DNA of 64,000 nucleotides from positions 99,837-163,836 of the forward strand of contig CAYJVY010000001.1 of the NCBI GenBank assembly GCA_964373795.1, in the 5' to 3' direction. The stretch comes from an uncultured archaeon (GTDB lineage Archaea > Iainarchaeota > Iainarchaeia > Iainarchaeales > DATDZZ01). Position 1 is the first letter of the stretch. Each line of letters opens with the position of its first letter. Shown in pieces: positions 125-60,678 of the stretch. The translations under genes were made by a program, and so were the position numbers. The notes under the pieces were generated by a model. The model had not been told where the DNA came from and ran no database searches. It saw only the letters and a program-made list of their open reading frames with translations.

Positions 125-1432
125 CTATAACTCGCTTTTTAGTTCGATTTTTTTATTTAAAAATTCAATTGATTTTTCTTCAATAGTTTTTTTTGTAACA
201 ATTATTTCATCACCCATTTTTTCAATTCTTTTCTTGTTTTCTGTTAAATTGTTTTCCTTTTCCTTTAATTCATTTTCAATTTCTTTTAATTCTTCGTTGA
301 GTAAATTTATTTCTTTTTGTATTGATATATTTTCTATTCTTTTTTCAATCACTTTTTTTTCTACCTCAACTTCATTTAACTTCCAAAATATCTCAGTGAA
401 AAAATCATATTTTTCAATTTTTTCAATTTCTTTTAACTTTTTTTCTTTTTCCACATCATTTAAGTTAATCGATTTTAATTCAATTGCTTTTTTTGTTTCT
501 TTTAAAATGTTTTTTAGTAAATCTCCTTTCAAATCACTTTTTATGGCATTTTCAGAGTTATTTAAATAAAATTCAAGTATTTTTTCTTCTTCAGGTTTTA
601 AAAAATATTTTTTTGATTTAATTAGTTTTTGGAGTTTTGTTAGTATTTTATTTATTGGGGCAAGTATGTCGACAAGTTTTTGCTTTATTTCTGTTTCTTT
701 TTGAATTGTTTTTGTTGTTTTTTCTTCTAATTGTTTTAATTCAATTGCTTCGGGGTTTGAATTCTTTTCTTCCATTTCCTTTCTTTTTTTTTCTTCCTGT
801 TTTTGGAGGTAATTAATGCAGGTTTCCAACTCTATTATTTGCTTTTCTTTTTCTTTTTTTTCTTCGATTTTTTGTTTTAAATTTAAAATGTTTAGTTCGA
901 CTTTTTTTGTTTTAAATATTTCGCTGTTTTCGAATATTTGTTTTAATTCATATGTGCAATCATTTAATTCCTTTATTTTATTCCCTACCTCTTTTACTTC
1001 TTTTTTAATTAAAGCGTTTGTTATTACAATATTTTTCCAAAAAGAGGCCAACTCGTTTGAAATTATTCCATTTGAATTAATGCAGTACTCTTGAACTATT
1101 TCTAAATTTTCAGTTGTTGGAGGGTTTAATTTTTTTATTAATGCTTTTAAATGCATTGAAAAGTGGTCTTTGTTTGTTTGAACAATTTTTCTTAATTTTT
1201 GACTTCCCTCAGTTGTAATTAGGTCTATTTTTTCAATTTCCTCTCTAATTTTGTTTAATTCATTTAATAAGTATTTTATTTCACTGAATTTTTGGAAAAT
1301 GGTTTTCTTTAACTCTGTTTCTTTCACTGACTTTTTCTCTGCAATTTTTCCAGCTAATTCTGTTAAATTTAATTTTATTATTTCTTCTTCTTGTGTAAAA
1401 AATTTTTTAATAAATCCAAACATAACTTTCAA
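125..1432 (-). CDS. Lys/Glu-rich coiled-coil protein of unknown function
   Basis: 435-aa ORF with heptad-like K/E/L/I periodicity throughout. No Walker A or other catalytic motif. Same-strand nested + strand ORFs (234..569, 816..1094, 1251..1451) are low-complexity mirror ORFs. Confidence 0.5.
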   Translation of the reverse strand: MKVMFGFIKKFFTQEEEIIKLNLTELAGKIAEKKSVKETELKKTIFQKFSEIKYLLNELNKIREEIEKIDLITTEGSQKLRKIVQTNKDHFSMHLKALIKKLNPPTTENLEIVQEYCINSNGIISNELASFWKNIVITNALIKKEVKEVGNKIKELNDCTYELKQIFENSEIFKTKKVELNILNLKQKIEEKKEKEKQIIELETCINYLQKQEEKKRKEMEEKNSNPEAIELKQLEEKTTKTIQKETEIKQKLVDILAPINKILTKLQKLIKSKKYFLKPEEEKILEFYLNNSENAIKSDLKGDLLKNILKETKKAIELKSINLNDVEKEKKLKEIEKIEKYDFFTEIFWKLNEVEVEKKVIEKRIENISIQKEINLLNEELKEIENELKEKENNLTENKKRIEKMGDEIIVTKKTIEEKSIEFLNKKIELKSEL

Positions 1433-1484
1433 TATATATTTTATTCAATGAATTTATAACTTAATTTTAGAGTTTTCTACTAAC

Positions 1485-1547
1485 CTGGTGCCTAAAATAT
1501 GTTTCTTTTTTCCCTCTGAGAATTTGTTTTCCTGGTGCCTAAATTTT
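1485..1547. repeat. 63-bp conserved intergenic element, copy A, containing two 13-bp CCTGGTGCCTAAA direct repeats. Second copy at 7332..7394.
   Basis: Direct reading: cctggtgcctaaaatatgtttcttttttccctctgagaatttgttttcctggtgcctaaatttt, versus 7332..7394, which differs at 2 positions. Sits about 45 bp upstream of the likely ATG of the 1595 ORF and the GGPPS operon. Confidence 0.8.
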
Positions 1548-1594
1548 CTCATTTTACAGAAACCTTTTTAAGAAAGAACATTCAAATATATTAT

Positions 1595-2122
1595 ATGTTT
1601 TGGAAAAAAATTGTTTTGCTTTTTTTATTGATGTCTTTTTCGCAATTTGTTTTTGCAGGTTCATCTAAAGTTGAATTTAATTCTCTTTTAGATAAATATT
1701 TTGATTCTTCTGGAGAATTGACTCTTGAAGCAAGAAACTCTTTAAAGCAATTTAATTCTGATTTGGATAAAGTTCCGGGCGTTTTAAGGAATGCTTTTTT
1801 AGGTGAAACTATTACTTTAGAAGTTAACTTTTCTGACAATAGCACTGAATTTTTTTGTGTTAAGACAACTTCTAAAATTGAAAGCATTTCTAGAATTAAT
1901 TGTTCTAATCCTTCCTTGCTTGTTTCAATTAACGAATCTACTATTAAAGAGATTTCTTCAAGTGATAATTTTTTTGATAGTTTGGTTTCAGCTTATCTTT
2001 CTGGTGAAATAAAGGTTTCACCGGTTGGAGTTCCAGCTACTCTTAAAGTTACTTTTGTAAATATTTTTTCGGCTGTGTTTTCTTTTTTTAATTCCTTGTT
2101 TGGGAGAGTAGAGGTTAAATGA
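1595..2122 (+). CDS. Secreted or membrane-anchored hypothetical protein with N-terminal signal peptide
   Basis: The ORF track starts at GTG 1535, inside the repeat. The first ATG (MFWKKIVLLFLLMSFSQFVFAGSS) gives a classic signal peptide. Overlaps the GGPPS start by 4 bp, consistent with an operon. Confidence 0.45.
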   Translation: MFWKKIVLLFLLMSFSQFVFAGSSKVEFNSLLDKYFDSSGELTLEARNSLKQFNSDLDKVPGVLRNAFLGETITLEVNFSDNSTEFFCVKTTSKIESISRINCSNPSLLVSINESTIKEISSSDNFFDSLVSAYLSGEIKVSPVGVPATLKVTFVNIFSAVFSFFNSLFGRVEVK

Positions 2123-3192
2123 CTGAAGCAATTCAGATTTTAAAGGACTATCAGAAAAAAGTTGATGTTGAATTAATTGCTTTTTTAAATGAAAAAATTT
2201 CTGAAGCTAAAGGGCAAGATTCTTTTTCAATTGAATTGCTTAAAAGAATTAAGGAGGTAAGTGAGAAAGGCGGAGGAAAAAGAATTCGCCCTGCAATGGC
2301 TATTTTTGGTTTTAAATGTTTTGATTCTTCTACTGAAAAAGAGATTATTAAGGCATCAATTTCTTTAGAATTAATTCATACTTTTTTTTTGTTTCACGAT
2401 GACATAATGGATGAATCTGATACTAGAAGAGGATTGCCTACTTTGCATAAACAGTATGAATCCATTGCTTTAGAGTCTTTTCCTTCTTTTAATCCCAGGA
2501 GATTTGGAGAGTCAATGGCAATGCTTGGAGGAGATTTGCTTTCTTCTTTTGGTTTTGAAGCAGTTCTTAGAACTTCTTTCTCTGAAAAACAAAAACTTAC
2601 TGCTTTAAGAAAATTGAATGACATAATTTTTTTCACTTGTTTTGGGCAAATCAAAGATGTATTAAATGAAGGTAGAAAGGATTTCACTGAAGCAGATGTG
2701 TTAAATGTTCATACTTTAAAGACAGCTAAATATTCTATTGAAGGGCCTTGTCAGTTTGGAGCAATGTTTGCAAACGCTTCTCAAAAAGATTTAAAGGTTT
2801 TCACTGATTATGGAATTCCTGTTGGAATTGCCTTTCAAGTCCAAGACGATCTTTTAGGAGTGTTTGGTGATGAAAAAAAAATTGGAAAGTCTGCAGACTC
2901 TGATTTAAAGGAAGGAAAAAAAACCTTGCTTATTTTAAAGGCTTTAGAGAATGGTTCTGAAAAACAAAAAAAAGTTATTTACTCTGTTTTAGGAAACAGA
3001 AATGCTTCTCCTGAAAAAATTAATGAAGTAAGAGAAATAATTAAGGAAACTAAGAGTTTTGATTATTCTGTTAAAAAAGCTAAGGAACTACTTGAGAAAG
3101 GAAAAAAGGAAATGAAGAAATCCAAATTCAAATCCGAGGGAAAAGAGTTTTTGATTGGCATTGCTGATTACATGCTTTCAAGAGAATATTAA
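2119..3192 (+). CDS. idsA: Polyprenyl (geranylgeranyl/farnesyl) diphosphate synthase, trans-IPPS
   Basis: First aspartate-rich motif FHDDIMDESDTRRG and second aspartate-rich motif FQVQDDLLGVFGDEKKIGK are present. 357 aa. Confidence 0.8.
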   Translation: MTEAIQILKDYQKKVDVELIAFLNEKISEAKGQDSFSIELLKRIKEVSEKGGGKRIRPAMAIFGFKCFDSSTEKEIIKASISLELIHTFFLFHDDIMDESDTRRGLPTLHKQYESIALESFPSFNPRRFGESMAMLGGDLLSSFGFEAVLRTSFSEKQKLTALRKLNDIIFFTCFGQIKDVLNEGRKDFTEADVLNVHTLKTAKYSIEGPCQFGAMFANASQKDLKVFTDYGIPVGIAFQVQDDLLGVFGDEKKIGKSADSDLKEGKKTLLILKALENGSEKQKKVIYSVLGNRNASPEKINEVREIIKETKSFDYSVKKAKELLEKGKKEMKKSKFKSEGKEFLIGIADYMLSREY

Positions 3193-5834
3193 TTTTTTAC
3201 TTGTTTTTCTTTTATTGCCATTTGAGCTGCTGCGAGTTTTGCTATTGGAACCCTAAACGGACTGCAGCTAACATAATTTAATCCAATTTTGTGGCAGAAT
3301 TCAACTGAAGAAGCTTCTCCTCCGTGTTCTCCACAAATTCCTATTTCTAGTTCTGGATTTGTTTTTCTTCCAAGTTCAACACATAACTTCATTAGTTTTC
3401 CTACTCCTTCTTGATCTAATACTGCGAAAGGATCTTTTTCAAATATTTTTTTTTCCTCATAGTGTTGAACGAATTTTCCAATATCGTCTCTTGAAAACCC
3501 ATAAGTTGTTTGAGTTAAATCGTTTGTTCCAAAGGAAAAAAATTCTGCTTCTTTTGCTATTTCATCTGCTGTAATGCATGCTCTAGGCAATTCAATCATT
3601 GTTCCAATCTTGAATTTAACTCCTTTTTCTTTTAATTTTAGTTCTTCTGCGACTTTTAAAATTATTTTTTTCATTTCAGTTAATTCTTTTACTGTTCCCA
3701 CTAAAGGAATTTCGATTTCAGGTAATACCTTTATTCCTTCTTTACTTACCTCTAATGCAGCTTCTAGTGCTGCTCTTGCCTGCATTTCATATACTTCTGG
3801 ATAGCTTAGCCCTAATCTTACTCCTCTGTGGCCAAGCATTGGGTTTGTTTCTTTTAATGATTCTACTTTTGCTTTAATTATTTCTTTTTCTACATTCATT
3901 TCCTTACTCATTTCTTCTACATCTTTTTCAATAAATGGAAGAAATTCGTGTAAAGGCGGATCTAGAAATCTTATTGTTACTGGAAAGCCATTCATTTCTC
4001 TGAATAATTCTTTGAAATCATTTTTTTGTAATGGCTTGATTTTTTCTAAAGCTTTTTTTCTCCCTTCTAAGTCTTTTGCTAGAATCATTTCCCTAATTGT
4101 TTTAATCCTGTCTTCTTGAAAAAACATGTGTTCTGTTCTGCATAAACCTATTCCTTCTGCTCCAAATTCTCTTGCTTTTCTTGCATCAATTGGAGTGTCT
4201 GCATTTGCTCTTACTTTTAGTTTTCTGTATTTGTCTGCCCAATGCATTATTTCTTCAAATTCCTTGCTTAGAGTTGGATCTGTTACAGGAATTTGTCCTT
4301 TAAATATTTCTCCTGTTGCCCCGTCTAAAGTAATCCATTCACCTACTTTTATTACTTCTTGTTTTGAAGTAGTGAATTCTCCAGGATTTCCTTTAATGGA
4401 TATTTCTTCACATCCAACAATGCAGCATTTACCCATTCCTCTTGCAACAACTGCTGCATGACTTGTTAATCCTCCTCTTGAAGTTAGAATTCCTTGAGCT
4501 ACATGCATTCCTTCAATGTCATCTGGAGAGGTTTCAGCTCTAACTAAAATTATTTTTTCTCCTGGATTTTTTTCAAATAGTTCTTTTGCTTTTTCTGCGC
4601 TGAAAACAACTTTTCCTACTGCAGCTCCTGGAGAAGCAGCTAATCCTTTTGCAATTGCTTTAAATTCTTTTTTTGCTTTTTCATCTAACTGTTTATGCAG
4701 TAATTGATTTAACTGGTTTGCATTTATTTTTAGTAAGGCTTCTTTTTCTGTTAAAATTTTTTCTTTCACCATGTCTACTGCAATTTTTACTGCTGCTTTT
4801 GCAGTTCTTTTTCCATTTCTTGTTTGCAATAAATATAGCCTGTTTTCTTCAATTGTGAATTCAAAGTCTTGCAAGTCTTTGAAGTGTTTTTCTAGTTTTT
4901 CATATACTTGAATTAGTTTTTCATATGATTCTGGGAGATCTTTTTTCATTTCATCAATGTGTTTTGGAGTTCTAATTCCTGCTACTACATCTTCTCCTTG
5001 CGCGTTTAAGAGATATTCTCCGTAGTGTTCTTTTTCTCCTGTTGCAGGGTTTCGAGTGAATCCAACTCCTGTTGCACTAGAGTTTCCTTTGTTTCCGAAA
5101 ACCATTGCTTGAATATTTACAGCTGTTCCTGCATCGTCTTTTAATGAATTAATTCTTCTATAAGAAATTGCTCTAGAACTATTCCATGACTCAAAAACAG
5201 CATTAATTGTCATTCTTAATTGTTCTTCAGGGTTTTGAGGAAAACTTTTTCCTTTTGCTTTAACTAATTTCTTGTAATCTTCAACTAATTCCTTTAAATC
5301 TTGTGCACTTAAATCAGTGTCAAATTTTACTTTTCTTGCATGCTTTTTTTTTTCCAGTAACTCTTCAAAATCTGAATGACTTAACTCCATTACTACGTCT
5401 GAAAACATTTGAATAAATCTTCTATACGAATCCCATGCAACTCTTTCATTTTTTGTTTTCTCTGAAAATGCTTTAACTGATTCGTCGTTCATTCCCAGAT
5501 TTAAAACTGTATCCATCATTCCAGGCATGGAAACATAGCTTCCGCTTCTAACTGAAACAAATAAAGGGTTTTCTTTATCTCCTAATTTTTTGTTCATTTT
5601 TTTTTCTAATTCTTTTAATTTTTCTTTTACTTGTTCTTCTAATCCTTTAGGCCATTTTTTTTCTAATTCATAATATTTTTTGCATGCTTCAGTTGTAATA
5701 GTAAATCCTGGTGGAACCATTAAACCTATTGCAGTCATTTCCGCTAATTGAGCTCCTTTATTTCCTAATAGAAAAGCGCTTTCCTCGCTTGCTTTGCTTT
5801 CATTAAACGCGTATACAAGTCTTTCTTTATTCAT
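3189..5834 (-). CDS. ppdK: Pyruvate, phosphate dikinase
   Basis: 881 aa. Has an ATP-grasp N-terminal region, the phospho-histidine swivel motif GGLTSHAAVVARGMGKCCIVGC, and a PEP-utilising C-terminal TIM barrel (NDLTQTTYGFSRDD). Confidence 0.85.
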   Translation of the reverse strand: MNKERLVYAFNESKASEESAFLLGNKGAQLAEMTAIGLMVPPGFTITTEACKKYYELEKKWPKGLEEQVKEKLKELEKKMNKKLGDKENPLFVSVRSGSYVSMPGMMDTVLNLGMNDESVKAFSEKTKNERVAWDSYRRFIQMFSDVVMELSHSDFEELLEKKKHARKVKFDTDLSAQDLKELVEDYKKLVKAKGKSFPQNPEEQLRMTINAVFESWNSSRAISYRRINSLKDDAGTAVNIQAMVFGNKGNSSATGVGFTRNPATGEKEHYGEYLLNAQGEDVVAGIRTPKHIDEMKKDLPESYEKLIQVYEKLEKHFKDLQDFEFTIEENRLYLLQTRNGKRTAKAAVKIAVDMVKEKILTEKEALLKINANQLNQLLHKQLDEKAKKEFKAIAKGLAASPGAAVGKVVFSAEKAKELFEKNPGEKIILVRAETSPDDIEGMHVAQGILTSRGGLTSHAAVVARGMGKCCIVGCEEISIKGNPGEFTTSKQEVIKVGEWITLDGATGEIFKGQIPVTDPTLSKEFEEIMHWADKYRKLKVRANADTPIDARKAREFGAEGIGLCRTEHMFFQEDRIKTIREMILAKDLEGRKKALEKIKPLQKNDFKELFREMNGFPVTIRFLDPPLHEFLPFIEKDVEEMSKEMNVEKEIIKAKVESLKETNPMLGHRGVRLGLSYPEVYEMQARAALEAALEVSKEGIKVLPEIEIPLVGTVKELTEMKKIILKVAEELKLKEKGVKFKIGTMIELPRACITADEIAKEAEFFSFGTNDLTQTTYGFSRDDIGKFVQHYEEKKIFEKDPFAVLDQEGVGKLMKLCVELGRKTNPELEIGICGEHGGEASSVEFCHKIGLNYVSCSPFRVPIAKLAAAQMAIKEKQVKN

Positions 5835-6083
5835 TTAATTTTTCACCCCAAGGCAAAGAGAAAATAGCCTATTTAATTCGTGTAAATTACTTTCCTTTCA
5901 CAATCTTCTTAAACTTATTCTTTTAAATTCATTTTTTTTCGTCAATTAGTTTAATCTTTTTTCATTACTGGAACCTTTTTAACTAATTCCTTGTTTAAAA
6001 ATTTATTAAAAAGGTGATTAAAAATTTCTTCATCTGAATTAAAAGAGTTTTATAAAAAATCTTTAGAGGAAAGAATTAAGTTA

Positions 6084-7298
6084 GTGAAAGAATTCTCCAA
6101 TCTTTCCGATGCAGATGTCAATTTGCTTTCTTCTTTCAAACCATTAGAATTTGAAGTTGCGAACAGAATGATTGAAAATGTTGTAGGAGTAATGCCTTTT
6201 CCTCTAGGAATTGCAACCAATTTTTTAATCAATGGAAAGGATTACTTAATTCCAATGGCTTTAGAAGAAGCCTCTGTTGTTGCAGCTGCTTCTCATTCAG
6301 CAAAGCTTGCACGCGAAAAAGGAGGATTTACTGCTTCTTCAACTGATCCAATAATGATTGGACAAATTCAGTTATTGAATGTTCCAAACCTATCTAAAGC
6401 AAAAAACGCAATTGAGTCTGCGAAAAAAGAAATTTTGGAATTCTGTAATTCAATTGATTCAGTGTTAGTGAAATTTGGAGGAGGAGCAAAGGATTTCACT
6501 TTACGAGAAATTCCCTTTTCTAAAGGAAAAATGCTTGTCTTTCACTTGCTTGTAGATGTTCGAGATGCAATGGGTGCAAATGCTGTTAACACAATGTGTG
6601 AAAAGCTTTCTCCGCGTTTAGAACAGCTTTCAGGAGGAGAAACTCGTTTAAGAATTTTATCAAATCTAGCAATTTATCGTTTAACTAAAGCAAAAGCTAT
6701 TTGGAGTAAAAAAATTTTAACAGAGCAATTCGGTGAACAAGCAGTTGACAGAATTTTAGATGCATTTGAATTTGCTGTAAACGATCAATTTCGTGCAACA
6801 ACTCATAACAAAGGAATAATGAATGGAATTGATGCAGTAGTAATTGCTACAGGAAATGACTTCAGAGCAGTTGAAGCTGGAGCACATTCCTATGCTGCTT
6901 TTGAGCATAATTATTCTTCTCTAACAAAATATTACAAAAATTCTGATGGAGACTTGGTTGGAGAAATTGAATTACCTTTAGCAATTGGTTTAATTGGTGG
7001 AGCAACTAAAGTGCATCCAATGGCTCAAGTTTCATTAAAAATTTTGGGAGTAAAAACAGCTAATGAATTAAGTCAAGTAATTGCTTCTGTTGGCCTTGCG
7101 CAAAACTTTGCTGCAATGCGTGCATTGGCAATTGAAGGAATTCAGCAAGGCCATATGAAGCTTCATTCCAGAAACCTTGCTTCAATGGCTGGAGCAAAAG
7201 GAAATCAAATAGATTTAATTGCAGCTCAAATGGTGAAAGAAAAAAACGTTTCATTTTCCAGGGCAAAAGAATTAATTGAAGGATTGCAAAAACACTAA
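6084..7298 (+). CDS. hmgA: Hydroxymethylglutaryl-CoA reductase (class I, archaeal-type)
   Basis: 404 aa with motifs EASVVAAASHSAKLAR, DAMGANAVN and GTVGG-like region. GTG start as called by the ORF track; no in-frame ATG upstream. Confidence 0.85.
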   Translation: MKEFSNLSDADVNLLSSFKPLEFEVANRMIENVVGVMPFPLGIATNFLINGKDYLIPMALEEASVVAAASHSAKLAREKGGFTASSTDPIMIGQIQLLNVPNLSKAKNAIESAKKEILEFCNSIDSVLVKFGGGAKDFTLREIPFSKGKMLVFHLLVDVRDAMGANAVNTMCEKLSPRLEQLSGGETRLRILSNLAIYRLTKAKAIWSKKILTEQFGEQAVDRILDAFEFAVNDQFRATTHNKGIMNGIDAVVIATGNDFRAVEAGAHSYAAFEHNYSSLTKYYKNSDGDLVGEIELPLAIGLIGGATKVHPMAQVSLKILGVKTANELSQVIASVGLAQNFAAMRALAIEGIQQGHMKLHSRNLASMAGAKGNQIDLIAAQMVKEKNVSFSRAKELIEGLQKH

Positions 7299-7331
7299 TT
7301 AATTCTTATATTTTTTATTGAAATCTTAGTT

Positions 7332-7394
7332 CCTGGTGCCTAAAATATGTTTCTTTTTTCCCTCTAAAAATTTGTTTTCCTGGTGCCTAAATTT
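7332..7394. repeat. 63-bp conserved intergenic element, copy B (see 1485..1547)
   Basis: 61/63 identical to copy A. Lies about 140 bp upstream of the HMG-CoA synthase start. Confidence 0.8.
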
Positions 7395-7537
7395 TTTTCT
7401 TTTAAAACTCTTTTTTATTTTTTTATATTTTTTTTGTAAATTTTTTTTAAAAGTTTCTGCGATCAACGATTAGAATTCTTTTTAAATCAAACTCTTGAGA
7501 ATATTAATATTGAGATTTCTATTTTTGTGATTGAATA

Positions 7538-8581
7538 ATGATTACTGGAATTGTTGGTTACGGAGCTTATATTCCGCAGTATAGAATTAAGGCTGAAACA
7601 ATTGCCGAGGTATGGGGAACTGATCCTAAAACAATTATTAATGGCTTGCTTATTCAAGAAAAAAGTGTTCCAGGAAAAGATGAAGACACTATTTCAATTT
7701 CAGTTCAAGCAGCTCGAAATGCTTTAACTCGCGCGCAAATAGATCCTCAAAAAATTGGAGCAATTTTTATTGGCTCTGAAAGCCATCCTTATGCAGTAAA
7801 GCCTTCTGCTTCAATTGTTGGAGATGCATTAAATGCTGGGCCAGATTTAATGATGGCTGACACAGAGTTTGCTTGCAAGGCTGGAACAGCTGCAATTCAA
7901 ATGGTTTACGGTTTAGTGAAATCTGAAACAATTGAATATGGTTTAGCAATTGGAGCTGATACTTCTCAAGCCTCTCCAAATAATGCTTTAGAATACTCTG
8001 CTTCTGCTGGAGGAGCAGCATTTATTTTAGGAAGACAAAAAAAAGAAGTCCTCGCTTCCTTGGATTCAACTTATTCTTTTGCAACTGATACCCCTGATTT
8101 TTGGAGAAGAGGTTTAGCTTCTTTTCCTTCTCATGCAGGCAGATTCACTGGAGAACCAGGTTATTTCAAGCACTTGGAAGCAGCTGCTAAAAAAATAATG
8201 GATTTAAATGGCTTTAAGCCTTCAGATTTTGATTTTGTTTCCTTTCATCAACCAAATGGAAAATTTCCTTTAACTGCTGCAAAAAATTTAGGTTTTAATT
8301 CAGAACAATTAAAAACCGCTTTGCTTGTAACAAGAATTGGGAACACTTACTCTGGAGCATCTCCTTTAGGTTTAACAGCAATTCTTGACATTGCAAAGCC
8401 TGGGCAAAAAATTCTTGTAACCTCTTATGGATCTGGTTCTGGAGCAGATGCATTTATTTTTACTGTAACAGATGTCTTACCTTCAAAACAAGGTTTAGCA
8501 AAAAAAACAGAAGACTATATTGCTAGAAAAAAATATTTATCTTACACTAAATACAGACAACACATGGAGCTCATCCACTAA
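7538..8581 (+). CDS. HMG-CoA synthase (archaeal type)
   Basis: 347 aa. N-terminus MITGIVGYGAYIPQYRI is typical of archaeal HMGCS, with a thiolase-fold condensing-enzyme architecture. Confidence 0.85.
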   Translation: MITGIVGYGAYIPQYRIKAETIAEVWGTDPKTIINGLLIQEKSVPGKDEDTISISVQAARNALTRAQIDPQKIGAIFIGSESHPYAVKPSASIVGDALNAGPDLMMADTEFACKAGTAAIQMVYGLVKSETIEYGLAIGADTSQASPNNALEYSASAGGAAFILGRQKKEVLASLDSTYSFATDTPDFWRRGLASFPSHAGRFTGEPGYFKHLEAAAKKIMDLNGFKPSDFDFVSFHQPNGKFPLTAAKNLGFNSEQLKTALLVTRIGNTYSGASPLGLTAILDIAKPGQKILVTSYGSGSGADAFIFTVTDVLPSKQGLAKKTEDYIARKKYLSYTKYRQHMELIH

Positions 8582-8624
8582 GCCTTTTTAGCGGATTTTG
8601 TTTCACAAAATCCTAAAAGGCTTG

Positions 8625-8685
8625 CGAAAATTTGAAAAAATTTGAAAAAATTTGGAAAAATTTGAAAAGAAAATTTGAAAATTAG
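8625..8685. repeat. AT-rich tandem repeat (AAAATTTGAAA-like unit, about 5 copies) in the thiolase leader
   Basis: aaaatttgaaaaaatttgaaaaaatttggaaaaatttgaaaagaaaatttgaaaatt read directly. Confidence 0.7.
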
Positions 8686-8694
8686 AGGGAAAAT

Positions 8695-9852
8695 ATGAAA
8701 GTAGCAGTTGTTGGAACTGGTTTAACTCAATTTGGAGAGTTATGGAATAAAGGCATTAAAGATTTGCTTGCTGAAGCTCAGTTAAAAGCTTTAGAGGATG
8801 CAAAAATGTCTGGAAAAGATATTCAAATGATATATACAGGTAACATGGTTTCAGGAGAATTAACTGGTCAAGAACATTTAGGAGCAATGGCTTCAGAGAA
8901 TTTAGGATTAAATATTCCTTCAACTCGAATTGAAGGAGCATGTGCTTCAGGTAGCTTAGCAATTCGAGAAGGAGTTTTTGCAATTCTTTCAGGGCAAGCA
9001 GATATTGTAATGGTTAATGGAGTAGAAAAAATGACTGATTGTTCTGTTGAACAAGTTACAACTGCTTTAATGGGTGCAGGTGATGAAGAATGGGAGGAAT
9101 TTCAAGGAGCAACTTTTCCAGGGCTTTATGCTTTATTTGCGAGAAGAATGTTTCATGAAAAATTAATTACTCGCGAACAACTTGCAATGGTTTCAGTTAA
9201 ATCTCACAAGCATGGAACCTTAAACCCTATTGCTCAATTCAAAAAAGAAATCACTGTAGACGATGTATTAAAGTCTTCAATGGTTGCAGATCCTTTAACC
9301 TTGCTTGATTGTTCTCCAATCTCTGACGGAGCTGCTTCAATTATTCTTGCAAAACCAGAACTAGCAAAAAAATTCACTGATTCGCCTGTTTACTTAATTG
9401 GTTCAGGGCAAGCAACTGATACTCTTGCATTGCATGCAAGAGATTCTTTAACTGAAATTAAAGGCACTCGAATAGCTGCTCAGCATGCTTTCAAGCAAGC
9501 AGGAATTTCAGTAAAAGATATTTCTATTACTGAAGTGCATGACTGTTTTTCTATTGCAGAGGTTTTAGCAATGGAGGGCATTGGCTTAACAAAGCCTGGA
9601 GAAACAGGGAAAGTAATTGAAGAAGGTCAAACATTTTTTGATGCAAAAATTCCAGTGAACACTTGTGGTGGATTAAAAGCTTGTGGGCACCCAATCGGAG
9701 CTACAGGAGTAAAACAAGCAATTGAAGTGGTTCATCAATTAAGAGGCGATGCAGGAAAAAGGCAAGTAAAAAATGCTTCAATTGGCATAACACATAATGT
9801 TGGAGGTACTGGAGCAACAGTAGTAGTAAATGTGTTTTCAAATAAAAGGTGA
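8695..9852 (+). CDS. Acetoacetyl-CoA thiolase (archaeal thiolase)
   Basis: 385 aa. MKVAVVGTGLTQFGELW N-terminus, catalytic Cys region EGACASGSLA, C-terminal CGGLKACGHPIGATG. Confidence 0.85.
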   Translation: MKVAVVGTGLTQFGELWNKGIKDLLAEAQLKALEDAKMSGKDIQMIYTGNMVSGELTGQEHLGAMASENLGLNIPSTRIEGACASGSLAIREGVFAILSGQADIVMVNGVEKMTDCSVEQVTTALMGAGDEEWEEFQGATFPGLYALFARRMFHEKLITREQLAMVSVKSHKHGTLNPIAQFKKEITVDDVLKSSMVADPLTLLDCSPISDGAASIILAKPELAKKFTDSPVYLIGSGQATDTLALHARDSLTEIKGTRIAAQHAFKQAGISVKDISITEVHDCFSIAEVLAMEGIGLTKPGETGKVIEEGQTFFDAKIPVNTCGGLKACGHPIGATGVKQAIEVVHQLRGDAGKRQVKNASIGITHNVGGTGATVVVNVFSNKR

Positions 9853-9857
9853 AATGA

Positions 9858-10256
9858 ATGTATCGTTCAAGTCCAATTATTCGATGGAGAAGATATAACG
9901 ATAGATATCGCTTTGAAGGAAATCAATGCATTAAGTGTCAAACAGTTTTTTATCCAAAAAAATTTTTATGCAAATGTGGTTCAAAAGAATTCAACGCATT
10001 TGAGTTTTCAGGAAAAGGAGTCCTTCTTTCTTTTACTGAAATAAAGTCTCCTCCAGAGGTTTTCATTGAACAAGCCACCTACTGCATTGGAATAGTTCAA
10101 TTAATTGAAGGCCCTAAAATTACTTCCCAAATTGCTGATGTAGAATTAAAAGACTTAAAAATTGGAATGAAATTAATTTCTTCTTTCAGAAAATTTTATT
10201 CCTCTGGAGAAGAAGGAGCAATTCATTATGGAACAAAATTCATTCCAGATTTCTAA
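9858..10256 (+). CDS. DUF35 OB-fold/zinc-ribbon scaffold protein of the thiolase-HMGCS complex
   Basis: 132 aa with C-x2-C...C-x-C ribbon (CIKCQTVFYPKKFLCKCGS). Invariant position after thiolase. Confidence 0.75.
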   Translation: MYRSSPIIRWRRYNDRYRFEGNQCIKCQTVFYPKKFLCKCGSKEFNAFEFSGKGVLLSFTEIKSPPEVFIEQATYCIGIVQLIEGPKITSQIADVELKDLKIGMKLISSFRKFYSSGEEGAIHYGTKFIPDF

Positions 10257-14556: not shown

Positions 14557-15354
14557 TCACTGCTTTAGATTGATTTTAAGCATAAAGATTTTTTCAATGT
14601 AATCTATTATTGAATAAAAAATTATCCCCCAAAATGAAATCAATAAAATTGCTGCAAACATCAAAGGAGTATTCAAATAATAAGAAGAGTTCACAATTAT
14701 GTGTCCCAATCCTTGAGTTGCACCAGTGAATTCTCCAATTATAACTCCTACAACTGCCAGAGTACTTGAAATTTTTAGTGAAGAAAAAACAAATGGCAGT
14801 GAATTAGGAATTTGAAGCTTCAATAATGTTTGCAGTCGCGTAGCAGAATAGGATTTCATTAAATCTAGTTGTTCTTTTTCAATGCCTTGAAGTCCTTCCA
14901 ACGAATTTATTAAAACAGGAAAAAAAGCAACAAGGCTTCCCATAACAATTTTTGATTCTAATCCATTTCCAAACCATAAAATTAATGCTGGTGCAAGAGC
15001 AATTAGTGGAGTGGCCTTTATTGCAATTGCAAAAGGAAGAAAAGAATTTTTTACAGTTTTTGAAAGAACAAAAACAATTGCTAATAAAAAAGCTAGCAGG
15101 CTTCCAATAATAAAAGCAGAAACAGATTCAAATGCAGTGACAAAAAGATTTGAATATAATTCTCGGTTATTAATAATGATTGATTTTATTACCTCTGAAA
15201 ATTTTGGGATAATTATATTATCAACTATTTCAAGAGAAGCAAAAAACTCCCAAAAACCAAGAAATAAAATCAATACAATTAAAGGCAGAATTAATTCTTT
15301 TGCTTTATCAATAAATTTTTTAAGCATTTTACATACTCCTGAAATTTTTTGCAA
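14557..15354 (-). CDS. ABC transporter permease (NitT/TauT-type binding-protein-dependent system)
   Basis: 265 aa, about 6 TM segments, EAA-like loop region. Confidence 0.7.
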   Translation of the reverse strand: MQKISGVCKMLKKFIDKAKELILPLIVLILFLGFWEFFASLEIVDNIIIPKFSEVIKSIIINNRELYSNLFVTAFESVSAFIIGSLLAFLLAIVFVLSKTVKNSFLPFAIAIKATPLIALAPALILWFGNGLESKIVMGSLVAFFPVLINSLEGLQGIEKEQLDLMKSYSATRLQTLLKLQIPNSLPFVFSSLKISSTLAVVGVIIGEFTGATQGLGHIIVNSSYYLNTPLMFAAILLISFWGIIFYSIIDYIEKIFMLKINLKQ

Positions 15355-16016
15355 TGTTTTATCTCAGGATTTCTTGGCCTGGAAAAATCAATTTTAATAA
15401 TTTTTTTTACCATAGAAGGTATTTCAGATAAAACAATTATTTTGTCTGAAAGAAAAACTGCTTCTTCTAAATGATGAGTGACAAATAAAATTGTTCGCTT
15501 TTTTTTCAACCAAATATTTTGCAACTCTATTGCAAGTGTTTCTCTTGAAAGTTCGTCTAGTGAAGCAAAAGGTTCATCCATTAAAAGCAAATCTGGTTGA
15601 AACGATAAAGCTCTAGCAATTGCAGTTCTTTGTTGCATTCCTCCCGAAATCTGATGAGGGAAAAATTTCTCAAAATTTTGTAATCCAACCAATTCAACAA
15701 ACTTTTTAACATGTTTTTCGCTATTTCCCAAAATTTCTTGAGGTAGTTTAATATTTTCTTCAACTGTTCGCCACTTCAATAATCCCGGTTTTTGAAATAC
15801 AAATCCAAATCTTGGATTAGTTTTCTGAATTTCTATATTTCCATTTGAAGGATTTTCTAATCCTCCGATAATTCTTAAAAGAGTGCTTTTTCCACAACCA
15901 CTTTTTCCTACAAGTGAAACAAATTCTCCTTGTTCTGCATGAAAGTTCACATCTTTTAATACAAGTAATTCTTCAGGAGAATTAAAAACCTTTGAAACAT
16001 TTTCTACTTTAATCAT
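15291..16016 (-). CDS. ABC transporter ATP-binding protein
   Basis: Walker A GKSGCGKST, signature ISGGMQQR, Walker B LLLMDEP. Confidence 0.8.
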   Translation of the reverse strand: MIKVENVSKVFNSPEELLVLKDVNFHAEQGEFVSLVGKSGCGKSTLLRIIGGLENPSNGNIEIQKTNPRFGFVFQKPGLLKWRTVEENIKLPQEILGNSEKHVKKFVELVGLQNFEKFFPHQISGGMQQRTAIARALSFQPDLLLMDEPFASLDELSRETLAIELQNIWLKKKRTILFVTHHLEEAVFLSDKIIVLSEIPSMVKKIIKIDFSRPRNPEIKHCKKFQEYVKCLKNLLIKQKN

Positions 16017-17015
16017 TTAATCCCTAATATTCAATTTGTTTACAAAAGATGTGTCAAAGGCGTCATCTACATTGAATGGTTTTTCAACTACTTTTTCAGT
16101 TAAAAGTCTATCATATGTTTCTTGAAACATTTGCGTATCCATAAACCCATAAGGATTTTTAGAAACAGGTTCATTGTAAATATGCAGTCTTTTTAATTCA
16201 ATATTTTCATTTATTTTTGCATCATATTTTGCTAAAATTTCAATAGATTCTTTTGGATAATTAACGCTATACTTTAAGCCTTTCAATGTTGCTCTCAAAA
16301 ACTTTTCAGTAGTTTTAGGATTTTTTTCAATAAAGTCTTCCCTAGCAAAAAGAGTATATCCATGACTACTAACTCCGTAATCCTTTGGATCAATTGAATT
16401 TATTTCAATTCCTTTTTCAGGAAGATCTATGCCTGCTGTTGGCCTAAAAGCAAATTGTGCATCAATTTGTCCGGAAACAAGTTGACTATAATTATATCCG
16501 ACATCCACCTCTTGCACACTAATTTTCTCTTTATTGAAAAGTGCATGCAAGATATCAGTAGAAATATGTCCATAATAAAATCCAACTTTTTTTCCTTGCA
16601 AGTCTTCAACTTTTGTTAAACCACTTTTTTTAAGTGAAAGCAATACAACAAAGTTTGCATTTTTATGAAAAACTGCAATGGCTTTTAATGGCTGGCTCTT
16701 GCCTCTTGCAACAAGTAAGGTGTCAGGTCCGCCAAGCAAACCAAACTCATCAGATTTTGTTAAAATCATTTTAACTGGATTAAGTTCTGGAGAGCCATGA
16801 TTAAAAGTTACATCTAATCCTTCTTCAGCATAATACCCTTTATTTAAAGCCACATAAAAAGGTGTTTGCCCGGCTTCAACAAAGGGAATTGGAAATCTAA
16901 CTGACACTTTTTCTAATTTTTTAGAGTCATTATTAGAATTCGATGAAACACATCCCAAAATCAAGAGAAAAATGATTACTCCGCTAACGATAACTATCAA
17001 CTTATTCGAATTCAT
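16017..17015 (-). CDS. ABC transporter substrate-binding protein (NMT1/THI5-like), lipoprotein-type signal peptide
   Basis: N-terminal TM/signal plus LLILGCVSS lipobox-like. Position in the operon with the permease and ATPase. Confidence 0.6.
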   Translation of the reverse strand: MNSNKLIVIVSGVIIFLLILGCVSSNSNNDSKKLEKVSVRFPIPFVEAGQTPFYVALNKGYYAEEGLDVTFNHGSPELNPVKMILTKSDEFGLLGGPDTLLVARGKSQPLKAIAVFHKNANFVVLLSLKKSGLTKVEDLQGKKVGFYYGHISTDILHALFNKEKISVQEVDVGYNYSQLVSGQIDAQFAFRPTAGIDLPEKGIEINSIDPKDYGVSSHGYTLFAREDFIEKNPKTTEKFLRATLKGLKYSVNYPKESIEILAKYDAKINENIELKRLHIYNEPVSKNPYGFMDTQMFQETYDRLLTEKVVEKPFNVDDAFDTSFVNKLNIRD

Positions 17016-17134
17016 TTTTTGTTCACCTTTTACAATTAATAAGTAAATCTTGTCCTCGCTTGTTATTATATATTATTGTCCCCTTATGGGGTCGAAGTGA
17101 ATATAATTAAAAACCCTTTATAGAGAAATTTGTT

Positions 17135-17881
17135 ATGAATCACAAATTGTTTGAGGATATTGGTTTAACCTCTGGAGAAGTAAAAGTTTATTTTGCTTTA
17201 TTGAAGTTAGGCGCCACTAAAACAGGAGCGCTAGCTATAAATGCAGGGGTTTCTTCTTCAAAGGTTTACAAAATTCTTTCAAGGCTTGAAAAAAAAGGGC
17301 TTGCAGGGCATATTCTTAAAGGTAAAATAAAATACTTTAGCGCTAATGCTCCTAAAAGAATTCTTGATTATGTGGATGAAAAAGAATCTATTTTGCAGGA
17401 AAAAAAAGCTTTAATTGAGGAGTTACTGCCAGAATTAGAAAAACAAAAATTGTCTAGTAAAACTGAGGCAACAATTTATGAAGGCTTTAAGGGAGTTACA
17501 AATTTTTTCAAAAACATTTTGCACGAACTCAAAACAGGCGAAACTTATTATGTTATTGGCGCTGGATATGGAGATGATATTCTTGAATTGCGCGAATTTT
17601 TTTATAGTCATCATGCTAAAAGAGCTAAAAGAAAGATTAAAGTGAAAATGTTGGCAAATCATAATGTTAAAGACTCATTGGTTTCTACAAGTAAAAAAAA
17701 TTCTGAGATAAGATTTTTGCCTCAATATTTGATCACTAATATGGAGATTGTTTTCTATAAAAACAAGGTTTTCATTGCTTTATTAACTCATGAACCAATT
17801 GGTTTCTTGATTGAAAGCGAGGAAGCAGTTAAAAGCTTTCAATCCTATTTCAATGCTTTTTGGAAAATAGCTAAAAAATAA
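17135..17881 (+). CDS. TrmB-family transcriptional regulator
   Basis: N-terminal wHTH LTSGEVKVYFALLKLGATKTGALAINAGVSSSKVYKILSRLEKKGL plus C-terminal TrmB-like domain. Confidence 0.65.
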   Translation: MNHKLFEDIGLTSGEVKVYFALLKLGATKTGALAINAGVSSSKVYKILSRLEKKGLAGHILKGKIKYFSANAPKRILDYVDEKESILQEKKALIEELLPELEKQKLSSKTEATIYEGFKGVTNFFKNILHELKTGETYYVIGAGYGDDILELREFFYSHHAKRAKRKIKVKMLANHNVKDSLVSTSKKNSEIRFLPQYLITNMEIVFYKNKVFIALLTHEPIGFLIESEEAVKSFQSYFNAFWKIAKK

Positions 17882-20762: not shown

Positions 20763-21911
20763 ATGAAGGAATTAACTGTTTCTGCTCCAGGAAAACTAAT
20801 GCTTTCAGGAGAATGGAGTGTTCTTGAGCTAGGAGTTCCTTGTGTTGTAATGGCTATTGATAAAAGAGTTTACGCGAAAATTCATTCAACCTCAGATAAT
20901 AAAATTGTTTTAAATGCTCTAGACGTTGGTTTAAGCAATATCTCTGGATACTTTGATTTAAGTTCAAAAAAACTTTTATTTGAAAAAGAATTATCCAAAG
21001 AAGAATTAGATAAAGTTGTGTTCATTAAAAATGCTATTGAATTAAGTTTGGCTTTTTTGCAAGACAAAAAAGTTTCATTGAAAGGATTTTCATTAGAAAC
21101 TAAAAGTGATGATGCTCAAGTAAAACTTGAAGATGGCTCTGTAAAAAAAATTGGTTTTGGAAGCTCTGCGGCTGTATGCGTTGCAGTTTCAGGAGCTGTG
21201 TTTGCTTTACATGAACAAGAATTTAATTCTTATTCGTCTAAAGAAATTATTTTCAAGATTTCAGCTTTGGCTCATTTCACTGCTCAAGGAAAACTTGGAA
21301 GCTCTTTTGATATAGCTGCTTCTTCTTTTGGAGGAGTTCTTTTATATAAAAAATTTGACCCAGAATGGGTTGTAACTGAATTTAACAAAGGCAAACCAGT
21401 GCATGAATTAATGCTTGAAAAATGGCCTTATTTAGAAATTCGTTCTTTAAAGCTTCCAACAGATTTCAATTTATGTGTTGGTTGGACTAAGTCTAGTGCT
21501 TCAACTAAAGAATTAGTTTCAAAAGTGAACGAGTTTAAAAAAAATAATAAAGATAATTACATGCAAATAATAAAAAAAATTGAAGGTGTTACTTCAAAAT
21601 TAATTTCAGAACTTGAATCAAGCAATAAATTAACTGTTTTACAGTTATTACGCGAAAACAGGAAATACTTAAAAGAATTCAGTGATTTAACTCAAAACAA
21701 TTTAGAAACCCCTGAATTAAAGACTTTAGCTGATACAGCTGACTTGCTTGGAGCTGCAGGAAAGTTTTCCGGAGCAGGAGGAGGAGACTGCGGAATTGCA
21801 GTAACATTTTCAAACGAAGCAGCGCACAAAATTCAAAACGCTTGGAAAGAAAAAGGCTTATATCCATTAAACGTAAAAATAGCACAGCAAGGTTTGAGGT
21901 TGGAACACTAA
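20763..21911 (+). CDS. Phosphomevalonate kinase-like GHMP kinase (ERG8-type)
   Basis: VSAPGKLMLSGEWSVLE N-terminus resembles ERG8-type PMK rather than MVK. GHMP P-loop region GFGSSAAV. 382 aa. Confidence 0.6.
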   Translation: MKELTVSAPGKLMLSGEWSVLELGVPCVVMAIDKRVYAKIHSTSDNKIVLNALDVGLSNISGYFDLSSKKLLFEKELSKEELDKVVFIKNAIELSLAFLQDKKVSLKGFSLETKSDDAQVKLEDGSVKKIGFGSSAAVCVAVSGAVFALHEQEFNSYSSKEIIFKISALAHFTAQGKLGSSFDIAASSFGGVLLYKKFDPEWVVTEFNKGKPVHELMLEKWPYLEIRSLKLPTDFNLCVGWTKSSASTKELVSKVNEFKKNNKDNYMQIIKKIEGVTSKLISELESSNKLTVLQLLRENRKYLKEFSDLTQNNLETPELKTLADTADLLGAAGKFSGAGGGDCGIAVTFSNEAAHKIQNAWKEKGLYPLNVKIAQQGLRLEH

Positions 21912-22543: not shown

Positions 22544-22556
22544 TAATTTAAATTTA

Positions 22557-26789: not shown

Positions 26790-26977
26790 ATTCGCCGAGC
26801 ACGTGGCGAGCGTGAACGGTTGGCGAGGATGAGTACTTATGCAGGCATGTGTTAATGCGAATTGCTTGGCTGAAATTTGAAAAAGAAAAATAAAAAACAT
26901 TGCAAAGTAAGTGCTTTGCAAAAAGAAATAAAATTAGATTATTAAAAAAAGAAAAAACAAAAGGAGTTTTTATCCTT

Positions 26978-27130
26978 TTATTTTCCTGCTAATTTATGTC
27001 CTTTAACATAAGCCCATATTTTTTTAGTCATTTCACTTGGAGTAACTGGGTTTTTTCCGAAAACACTTTCAAGTGAAGCGTCTTGTCCTTTAAAACTAAT
27101 AGTATATCCTCCAAAAGCTTTTTTTGCCAT
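26978..27130 (-). CDS. Small SWIB/MDM2-like half-domain protein
   Basis: MAKKAFGG...VTPSEMTKKIWAYVKGHKL matches the N-terminal half of SWIB (LPRTEVVKKLWAYIKENNL). The ORF-track N-terminal extension is probably spurious. Confidence 0.35.
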   Translation of the reverse strand: MAKKAFGGYTISFKGQDASLESVFGKNPVTPSEMTKKIWAYVKGHKLAGK

Positions 27131-27635: not shown

Positions 27636-27735
27636 ATTTCTTCTTTCTTTTACTTTTTAGATTATTTTTCACTTTTCCTAAATATAAGAAGAATTAAATA
27701 TTTCCTTAATTCTATAATTCTTTTAAAGTGAGAAA

Positions 27736-42600: not shown

Positions 42601-42621
42601 AACTTTTTTAATAGTGTTCAA

Positions 42622-60675: not shown

Positions 60676-60678
60676 GGA

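Follow-up and report, generated by a model that had tools for sequence, protein, structure and literature searches.

A noncoding repeat stands in two near-identical copies upstream of two isoprenoid-biosynthesis units in the stretch of DNA that we analysed (64 kb, hereafter the window, whose coordinates are used throughout). Our tentative preference is for a DNA-level module, protein-binding or promoter-upstream, that was copied before the second isoprenoid unit; a functionless repeat is nearly as likely. One copy precedes the genes for a signal-peptide protein and a polyprenyl/GGPP synthase, and the other lies between those for HMG-CoA reductase (HMGR) and HMG-CoA synthase (HMGS). The copies and the two 13-mers, R1 and R2, that each contains are located as follows:

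1484..1556, plus strand: copy A (core 1484-1546; gapped alignment to ~1569), in a 171-bp divergent spacer
1484..1496, plus strand: 13-mer R1 of copy A, CCTGGTGCCTAAA
1531..1543, plus strand: 13-mer R2 of copy A, CCTGGTGCCTAAA, its centre ~58 nt upstream of the ATG at 1595
7332..7404, plus strand: copy B (core 7332-7394; gapped alignment to ~7415), between HMGR and HMGS
7332..7344, plus strand: 13-mer R1 of copy B, CCTGGTGCCTAAA
7379..7391, plus strand: 13-mer R2 of copy B, CCTGGTGCCTAAA

The copies are offset by 5848 bp and agree at 61 of the 63 positions of the core, the two mismatches lying at element positions 35 and 37, where copy A has G and copy B has A. Without gaps the repeat reaches 73 nt (1484-1556 and 7332-7404, 93% identity), and a gapped BLAST alignment carries it to 1484-1569 and 7332-7415 (87 columns, 89.7%, E = 1e-22). 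The next-best BLAST match within the window had E = 0.002 and fell in T-rich low-complexity DNA; the two-copy repeat is far above chance. A sequence-only reading of this DNA had reported a 63-bp element present twice with 61/63 identity, which held, and had placed copy A at 1485-1547, which is off by one. It had also claimed that the rest of the window has no further copy, and indeed neither a 13-mer scan nor BLAST of the 64 kb revealed a third. The copies differ at five positions (G/A, G/A, C/T, C/T and A/C), and three of the five differences sit in an ambiguous T-rich tail. Both copies are on the plus strand, and each is oriented alike with respect to the isoprenoid genes that follow it. An independent assembly, the Logan assembly of run ERR3478686, matches copy B in its right half, together with the spacer that follows; its contig starts within copy B, as is expected at a repeat. 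Open frames cross the element on both strands, yet in none of them do R1 and R2 share a reading frame, which ruled out a coding explanation.

The paired 13-bp direct repeats noted earlier, about 47 bp apart in each copy, proved to be four exact plus-strand occurrences of CCTGGTGCCTAAA, 47 nt apart within a copy and separated by a 34-nt spacer. No other site in the window matches the 13-mer at two mismatches or fewer, and matches at three mismatches are at chance level (12 found vs 10.25 expected). The core CTGGTGCC and GGTGCCT are likewise restricted to these four sites within the window. A possibility was that R1 and R2 derive from a decayed 47-bp tandem duplication. This was ruled out, since their flanks inside one copy are no more alike than shuffles, and the lack of residual similarity there indicates that the 13-mer is a discrete repeated site. 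G/C positions are unchanged within the 13-mers (0 of 14), as against 4 of 11 changed elsewhere in the element (Fisher p = 0.026, post hoc), and at each of the four changed positions copy A carries a G or C and copy B an A or T.

The genes around the two copies are the following:

125-1423, minus strand: coiled-coil protein gene, on the other side of the 171-bp divergent spacer that holds copy A
1595..3192, plus strand: unit downstream of copy A, with the signal-peptide protein (1595-2122) and the polyprenyl/GGPP synthase (2119-3192)
6084..7298, plus strand: class II HMGR, immediately upstream of copy B
7299..7537, plus strand: lineage-specific HMGR-HMGS spacer of 239 bp, with nine runs of at least 5 T on the coding strand and a T-rich 10-13-bp tandem at 7411-7451
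7538..10256, plus strand: unit downstream of copy B, with HMGS (7538-8581), thiolase (8695-9852) and a DUF35/OB-fold protein (9858-10256)

These are the contexts that had been assigned to the copies, a secreted protein/GGPP synthase operon for copy A and an HMGS/thiolase/DUF35 operon for copy B; in addition, the HMGR stop lies just upstream of copy B. The signal-peptide ORF overlaps the start of the polyprenyl/GGPP synthase by 4 nt. Copy A ends 39 nt upstream of the ATG at 1595, while copy B starts 33 nt past the HMGR stop and ends 134 nt before the HMGS ATG. The best TATA-like box near copy A, TTTTTAAG, lies at 1565-1572, 30 nt before the ATG at 1595, which is probably leaderless. R2 is there ~20-30 nt upstream of the box, and the element ends ~9 nt before it. 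At copy B the element ends ~65-70 nt before the best HMGS TATA-like box (TTTTTAAAT, ~7470-7480), so that the element-to-promoter geometry differs between the copies. When 38 upstream regions were searched de novo (EM) for promoter motifs, nothing emerged beyond a weak palindrome of the TTTAAA type at scattered positions, and promoters were not placed reliably in this ~22% GC intergenic DNA. The first 23 kb of the window form one isoprenoid gene neighbourhood, and the association of the copies with isoprenoid genes is confounded by proximity within it; a short-range duplication could explain the clustering.

The HMGR-HMGS spacer has the densest T-runs (at least 5 T) of any same-strand junction in the window. 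Oligo-T stretches terminate archaeal RNA polymerase, and with nine such runs in the spacer HMGS would need a promoter of its own. In six relatives HMGR and HMGS are contiguous, with gaps of at most 36 bp, an overlap, or one small overlapping ORF. Copy B is accordingly an insertion rather than an ancestral promoter, and it lies in a lineage-specific spacer that, judged by gene order in these relatives, has split an ancestral operon. The host is a low-GC DPANN archaeon, Diapherotrites/Iainarchaeota-like. The element and the 13-mer are absent from the closest relatives examined (L002-L005, L015, L096-L098 and L042), the nearest of which are only ~56-70% identical in protein (~65-70% for the nearest HMGS relatives, L002-L005 and L096-L098). 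The 13-mer at one mismatch or fewer is absent from 1.24 Mb of archaeal HMGS/mevalonate loci. Neither motif nor element was found in 80 GTDB HMGS loci. A second genome scan added little, the matches listed being mostly Methanobacteriaceae at no more than 63% identity. Absence from the orthologous promoters of close relatives had been named beforehand as an argument against a regulatory role, and the element is missing from all the relatives examined, at ~56-70% protein identity.

The wider scans were negative as well. A strict two-site pattern had no match in viral contigs and none in genome contigs, a collection that may not include this genome. In metagenome contigs it retrieved six loci, all of them satellite arrays (27-69-bp period, 43-55% GC) containing the 13-mer by chance, and these were discarded. 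In viral contigs the single-site pattern gave 12 unrelated single matches and the spacer pattern none, and no meaningful match came from phage and plasmid collections searched by BLAST with the element. Rfam had no match in the window at the gathering threshold, and around both copies, at E up to 10, only chance matches (E > 7).

How old is the resemblance? The earlier reading had argued that such conservation in intergenic DNA implies selection. This was not supported: the 63-73 nt are 93-97% identical with the 34-nt spacer included, and near-identity through the spacer as well as the 13-mers speaks for recency rather than for long-term selection, fitting a recent duplication or gene conversion. 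Recency is also what would be seen if the element were a functionless duplicate or a selfish repeat of low copy number that reached an ectopic site through templated repair, recombination or some other mobilisation and persists because noncoding DNA tolerates it, with an isoprenoid link that is an accident of proximity. We give this account serious, if still limited, credence. Copy B was inserted in an ancestral operon amid slippage-type AT-rich filler, and a second lineage-specific spacer, at 8582-8694, is likewise made up of a tandem repeat, of 10 bp. Each of the four transitions has a G or C of copy A replaced by A or T in copy B, which is what AT-biased mutation would do to a drifting copy B. 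The element is missing from all relatives examined, its distance to the downstream promoter differs between the copies, and the genome has mobile DNA (TnpB/IS605 OrfB and an AbiE module). On the other hand, only two copies occur in 64 kb, perfect 13-mers with unrelated flanks in each copy call for an explanation, and these GC-rich 13-mers have not accumulated changes.

Terminal inverted repeats, target-site duplications and hairpin ends common to both copies are all absent. An inverted-repeat search around both copies found no arm pair common to the two, the element ends being direct repeats. The flanks (CTACTAA|el|CAGAAAC and CTTAGTT|el|AAACTCT, el being the element) contain no duplicated bases. 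The repeat resembles neither the TnpB element at 39.1-40.3 kb nor its flanks, and an IS605-end origin was ruled out for want of IS-end similarity. Prokaryotic MITEs and short dispersed intergenic repeats have been reviewed (PMC10969869). The present repeat resembles them in being short, noncoding, near-identical and inserted relative to relatives, in a genome with an IS605-type TnpB; it is unlike MITEs in its lack of terminal inverted repeats, target-site duplication and IS-end similarity, and in having two copies 5.8 kb apart in the window.

Copies that are direct repeats bracketing 5.8 kb could also be sites of a DNA transaction, that is, att-type repeats of a recombinase around the segment, mini-ORB-like origin boxes, or the TR/VR pair of a diversity-generating retroelement (DGR). 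All three together seem to us very improbable. The adjacency of HMGR and HMGS is ancestral, so the bracketed segment is no insert; with no tRNA in the 64 kb, no integrase among the annotated ORFs and bracketed genes that are ancestral neighbours, a tRNA-linked att site was ruled out. The 13-bp asymmetric repeats flanking AT-rich DNA, which on the minus strand read ...CACCAGGAAAAC, are superficially similar to mini-ORBs, but the annotated ORFs of the window include no Orc1/Cdc6, and origin boxes were rejected. DPANN archaea carry DGRs. Here, a TR/VR pair was ruled out because no reverse transcriptase domain occurs among the annotated ORFs, both copies are intergenic, without a credible coding region, and the mismatches listed above are not limited to adenines of one strand. 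A CRISPR array was ruled out too: such arrays have at least three repeats, each 23-50 nt long and set apart by unique spacers, and cas genes usually accompany them, whereas each locus here has two repeats of 13 nt, the two loci share one "spacer", and the annotated ORFs include no cas gene.

A small structured RNA had been put forward alongside a DNA site. The plus strand does fold modestly (-12.3 kcal/mol for copy A and -9.5 kcal/mol for copy B; z = -3.1 and -3.4), its two GGUGCC hexamers pairing through G-U wobbles into a hairpin followed by a U-run, whereas the minus strand and single-stranded DNA of the element fold no better than shuffles. Such an RNA might terminate or attenuate transcription past HMGR, or else serve as a small RNA or a 5'-leader structure. 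The copy B hairpin stands 33 nt past the HMGR stop and has a T7 behind it, and R1 supplies an SD-like GGTG 8 nt before the ATG of a 6-codon ORF (MFLFSL) whose stop is kept, TGA in one copy and TAA in the other. However, two near-identical sequences offer no covariation, one of the two substitutions keeping a pair (G-U to A-U) and the other breaking one (C-G to C-A), and no Rfam family matched. Archaeal RNA polymerase would halt ahead of R2, at a T6 within the element (1506-1511 in copy A, 7354-7359 in copy B). Copy A has no plus-strand gene upstream to terminate, and about 5% of hexamers can pair with themselves once G-U pairs are counted, so the hairpin may be incidental. A plus-strand hairpin followed by T4-T7, in copy B right after a stop and in a spacer with nine T-runs, is reminiscent of hairpin-plus-U-run or oligo-T archaeal terminators; unlike these, the stem needs two G-U pairs, the T6 comes before the second arm and copy A lacks an upstream gene. 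A simple terminator scan flagged neither copy. The RNA proposal is thus weakly supported, and we consider it improbable.

As for the protein that might bind the 13-mers, the sequence-only reading had pointed to the TrmB-family regulator encoded at 17135-17881, with the 13-mers as its half-sites. The gene does lie within the isoprenoid neighbourhood, and in the relative L004 the last gene of the mevalonate cluster is a more distantly related TrmB-family member, at ~34% identity over the HTH region. But the TrmB gene forms a divergent pair with an NMT1 binding protein and an ABC transporter, here and in L015 and L012, and L012 has five such TrmB genes, each beside an NMT1-type gene. The intergenic region carries a conserved palindrome, GTCCCC-N4-GGGGTC (17078-17093 in the window), just upstream of a TATA-like box, and the paralogues have palindromes of their own. 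The 13-mer is non-palindromic and resembles none of them, and although the TrmB protein is shared across DPANN phyla at 60-83% identity, the element is restricted to this genome. The pairing and the palindrome suggest a local palindrome-binding autoregulator, not a binder of a 13-mer 10-16 kb away, and we hold the TrmB proposal to be highly unlikely. The 13-mer matched none of the TrmB/TrmBL operator types compared (TACT-N-AGTA, TATCAC-N5-GTGATA and the TrmB-adjacent palindrome), and no candidate binding protein was identified.

Known archaeal regulon cis-elements are palindromic, conserved across related genomes with diverged surroundings, and keep a constant distance to BRE/TATA. One is the glycolytic motif of the Thermococcales, TATCAC-N5-GTGATA, to which TrmBL1/Tgr binds; another is the set of Ss-LrpB boxes, which are regularly spaced. 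Our element is like these in placing a short motif before separate units of one pathway, with two boxes few helical turns apart (47 bp). It differs from them in its non-palindromic 13-mer, in 63-73 nt copied nearly verbatim, in a variable promoter distance and in being found in no relative.

We nevertheless favour, with reserve, a protein-binding module. The reasons are that the window has the exact 13-mer four times, always inside one of the two near-identical blocks, that these are discrete sites without G/C change, that HMGS, contiguous with HMGR in six relatives, would need a new promoter behind the T-rich spacer, that both copies have the same orientation to isoprenoid genes, with R2 near a TATA-like box in copy A, and that the element is noncoding, matches no known RNA and has no significant DNA-level secondary structure. 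Against it stand the absence of the element from relatives' mevalonate loci and from all scans, the differing promoter geometry, and the other isoprenoid genes of the window (MVK, MDD, PMK and IDI), which lack even 13-mer half-sites. The shared cis-regulatory module proposed at the outset thus kept its noncoding nature, its common orientation and its place upstream of isoprenoid genes, and gained no comparative support. A regulatory role is plausible, and we infer protein binding, promoter association and co-regulation from the arrangement of sites and genes.

In such a scheme, a lineage-specific intergenic module of ~73-87 bp would have been copied recently between two spacers 5.8 kb apart, copy B entering by insertion into a formerly tight HMGR-HMGS-thiolase-DUF35 operon. 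The many oligo-T termination signals of the resulting spacer would leave HMGS to be transcribed from its own promoter. The candidate binder would be a DNA-binding protein other than the neighbouring TrmB, recognising a pair of identical, non-palindromic 13-mers at a spacing of 47 bp; placed upstream of the promoters of the signal-peptide/GGPP-synthase and HMGS units, these sites might make both respond alike. The more specific proposal, that the 13-mer pair is a putative operator of a lipid-precursor regulator, copied into the operon so as to bring HMGS and GGPP synthase under one signal, is rather unlikely.

To our knowledge, little is known of how archaea, and DPANN archaea in particular, control the synthesis of isoprenoid membrane-lipid precursors, and our literature search found no described regulator or motif for archaeal mevalonate genes. 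On either reading, the claim currently depends on two copies from a single metagenome-assembled genome. Should the pair of 13-mers prove to be a genuine operator, the regulator could be sought with it as a concrete bait, the regulation of isoprenoid lipids in a DPANN archaeon would gain its first cis-regulatory handle, and the locus would exemplify regulatory rewiring through a duplicated promoter-upstream module that breaks an operon. If the second copy is instead a neutral duplicate, the locus documents how AT-rich insertions pull apart a compact operon in a reduced genome.

The window is archaeal DNA of ~30% GC, in which the 13-mer CCTGGTGCCTAAA occurred exactly four times, always on the plus strand, as a first (R1) and a second (R2) site in each copy of the element:

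1484-1496, plus strand, R1 of copy A, exact CCTGGTGCCTAAA
1531-1543, plus strand, R2 of copy A, exact CCTGGTGCCTAAA
7332-7344, plus strand, R1 of copy B, exact CCTGGTGCCTAAA
7379-7391, plus strand, R2 of copy B, exact CCTGGTGCCTAAA

These sites fell into two blocks offset by 5848 bp. The sequence-only reading had reported a 63-bp sequence present twice with 61/63 identity, and alignment bore this out; its coordinates were right for copy B (7332-7394) but one base too high for copy A (1485-1547), since the blocks identical at 61/63 positions are 1484-1546 and 7332-7394. No further CCTGGTGCCTAAA site with up to two mismatches was found in the 64-kb window, three-mismatch matches stayed at chance level, and the cores CTGGTGCC and GGTGCCT were absent from the window outside the four sites. 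Exact and mismatch scans thus agreed with the earlier count of two 13-mers per copy and two copies only, a count that covers 64 kb of the 188.7-kb source contig. Ungapped similarity extended up to 1556/7404 (73 nt, 93%) and a gapped alignment up to 1569/7415 (87 columns, 89.7%, E = 1e-22); the next-best match to the element in the window, at E = 0.002, lay within T-rich low-complexity DNA. The element has a sharp 5' edge at CCTGG, and its 3' edge grades into T-rich sequence. In an independent Logan assembly (run ERR3478686), copy B's right half and the spacer recur, and the contig starts inside the element, as expected for an assembly breaking at a repeat. A two-copy repeat far beyond chance was thereby confirmed.

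The first 23 kb of the window form an isoprenoid gene neighbourhood:

ATG at 1595, signal-peptide protein gene, overlapping the start of the polyprenyl/GGPP synthase gene by 4 nt
2119-3192, polyprenyl/GGPP synthase
minus strand, PPDK
6084-7298, class II HMG-CoA reductase (HMGR)
start 7538, HMG-CoA synthase (HMGS)
start 8695, thiolase
start 9858, DUF35 partner
12028, mevalonate kinase
18596, diphosphomevalonate decarboxylase
20763, phosphomevalonate kinase
21.9-23.6 kb, Nudix/IDI-like gene and FMN-dependent IDI-like gene

The last two (21908-23591), of the Nudix (IDI-1-like) and FMN-dependent (IDI-2-like) types, lie on opposite strands, overlap tail to head and adjoin the complete classical set of mevalonate kinase, phosphomevalonate kinase and decarboxylase. 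Copy A lies within a divergent spacer of 171 bp, flanked by a coiled-coil protein gene (125-1423, minus strand) and the signal-peptide gene. Copy B begins 33 nt past the HMGR stop, and 134 nt separate its end from the HMGS start.

The databases held no close relative of the source organism: the best HMGS match, in Diapherotrites MAGs, was 70% identical, and the closest genome fragment found was L015 (GCA_030650135.1, 'Candidatus Diapherotrites archaeon'), with 56-83% protein identity and local synteny. In six relatives, HMGR was followed directly by HMGS (17-36 bp gap, overlap, or one small overlapping ORF) and HMGS directly by thiolase; L042, an Iainarchaeum contig, keeps the order PPDK, HMGR, HMGS, though other genes separate the first two. 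The corresponding spacers in the window measure 239 bp (HMGR/HMGS) and 113 bp (HMGS/thiolase); since the three genes are contiguous in relatives, both spacers were inserted into an ancestral operon in this lineage. The HMGR/HMGS spacer carries nine coding-strand T-runs of at least 5, the densest set among same-strand junctions of the window, and a T-rich tandem repeat of ~10 bp period (10-13 bp) at 7411-7451, just 3' of copy B. The HMGS/thiolase spacer, also spanned by the Logan contig, is largely a 10-bp tandem, AAAATTTGAA repeated about 4-5 times, at 8617-8700. Oligo-T tracts terminate archaeal RNA polymerase; from the T-runs, we infer that HMGS very probably requires a separate promoter here.

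The sequence-only reading had proposed scanning relatives, and the repeat was absent from every relative reached, namely the HMGS loci of fragments L002-L005 and L096-L098 (HMGS identity 65-70%) and L042. Across 80 GTDB HMGS loci among the matches listed (1.24 Mb), no 13-mer with at most one mismatch was found, and the 15 with two mismatches were about the chance prediction. The strict two-site pattern had no match in a viral contig collection and none in genome contigs, the latter excluding other intact copies here only if this genome was included and the window masked. Its matches in the metagenome collection lay only in unrelated satellite arrays of 43-55% GC. In the JGI contigs L006-L011 the 13-mer is a chance component of several unrelated tandem satellites with a period of 27-69 bp, probably of eukaryotic or host origin, a warning against single-motif scans. 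The repeat is real, lineage-specific, two-copy and intergenic.

Conservation had been taken earlier as an argument for selection. However, the copies also match across the 34-nt spacer, and identity that reaches beyond the 13-mers is the signature of a recent duplication or gene conversion rather than of long-term selection acting on two half-sites. A functionless or selfish recent duplicate is accordingly quite conceivable, nearly as much so as a control module. A classic MITE was rejected, as the copies share no terminal inverted repeats, target-site duplications or significant DNA hairpins. A decayed 47-bp tandem duplication does not account for R1 and R2 either: their flanks resemble each other no more than shuffles do, so the 13-mer is a discrete repeated site. 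Frames are open on both strands across the element, but the two 13-mers occupy different frames, which spoke against coding sequence. Comparison with the defining features of CRISPR arrays, att pairs bracketing a mobile segment, ORB clusters and DGR pairs led to the rejection of all four, and a recombination, origin or DGR site is highly improbable. A TnpB/Cas12f-like IS605 OrfB gene (39125-40282, minus strand) beside an AbiEi/AbiEii toxin-antitoxin pair (40627-41888, plus strand) shows that the genome does hold mobile DNA; the repeat resembles neither, nor the flanks of the TnpB gene (39.1-40.3 kb).

Elsewhere in the window, genes for the transcription termination factor FttA/aCPSF1 (KH, beta-CASP and RMMBL domains; intein with LAGLIDADG domain) and RNA polymerase subunit B (also with an intein) occupy 55663-58974 and 60986-63916. 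Four intergenic stretches of 600-946 bp (26790-27735, 41889-42621, 58975-59677 and 60386-60985) are unusually long for a compact genome; they hold no ORF of at least 100 aa, Rfam match or tRNA, and could hide small genes or uncharacterised RNAs.

The suggestion of a small structured RNA fared unevenly. On the plus strand, GGUGCC can pair with the second GGUGCC via two G-U pairs, together with AAAAUA/UGUUUU, giving hairpins of -12.3 kcal/mol in copy A (z ~ -3.1) and -9.5 kcal/mol in copy B (z ~ -3.4), the latter followed by a T7 run; minus-strand and single-stranded DNA folds were no better than shuffles. Yet a T6 run separates the hairpin arms, no plus-strand gene precedes copy A for a terminator to act on, only one of the two substitutions leaves its predicted pair intact while the second disrupts a pair, and ~5% of hexamers are self-complementary if G-U pairs are allowed. 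Rfam gave no match to the element even at E up to 10, and the window has no tRNA genes. A plus-strand RNA element is unlikely. A six-codon ORF, MFLFSL (1499-1519/7347-7367), starts 8 nt past the SD-like GGTG of R1 in both copies and keeps its stop through one of the two substitutions (TGA vs TAA); this curiosity may well be coincidence.

The TrmB-family protein (17135-17881, ~248 aa) had been suggested as a possible regulator binding the 13-mers. Its gene is divergent from an NMT1-type binding protein and ABC transporter (14557-17015, minus strand), a pairing also seen in L015 and, for five TrmB paralogues each beside an NMT1-type gene, in another relative's fragment, L012. Their intergenic region carries a palindrome, GTCCCCTTATGGGGTC (GTCCCC-N4-GGGGTC, then GAAGT), at 17078-17093, with a TATA-like box directly downstream. 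The palindrome is conserved in L015 (696-711) and degenerate, as ACCCTAGGGGGTCGAAGT, before the L012 orthologue (about 9945-9965); the L012 paralogues whose upstream regions were read have mostly different palindromes at the equivalent position. It probably serves this TrmB as its operator, and the arrangement fits a palindrome-binding protein with a local role as (auto)regulator of the transporter. Across DPANN, in MAGs of Diapherotrites, Micrarchaeota, Nanoarchaeota and Altiarchaeota, the protein shows 60-83% identity, unusually high conservation that exceeds expectation for a specialised sugar regulator. The element, by contrast, is confined to this genome, and TrmB binding to the 13-mers seems very unlikely.

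There remained a shared cis-regulatory module for lipid genes, of which the 13-mer pair and its orientation stood up. Four perfect 13-mers lie in unrelated flanks, and both copies are oriented alike towards downstream isoprenoid genes. R2 of copy A lies a few tens of bases 5' of the best TATA-like box, and the insertion of copy B falls at a point that now calls for a new promoter. G/C positions changed at 0/14 sites inside the 13-mers vs 4/11 outside (Fisher p = 0.026, post hoc, with 3/5 A/B differences in the ambiguous T-rich tail), all four being GC in copy A and AT in copy B. Against this, comparative support is lacking, the distance to the best TATA-like box is ~9 nt in one copy vs ~65-70 nt in the other, half-sites are absent at other isoprenoid genes, proximity confounds the isoprenoid association, and the surrounding spacers resemble slippage-generated filler. 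De novo modelling of promoters gave no useful information in DNA this rich in AT. We thus regard a DNA-level protein-binding or promoter-upstream module as a tentative but quite conceivable candidate, the remaining probability falling to an unknown element or an artefact. The element belongs to a known kind, the short intergenic repeat or candidate cis element; and because it holds an identical 13-mer pair and was inserted into the ancestral mevalonate operon, a duplicated control module is a reasonable, albeit unproven, candidate.
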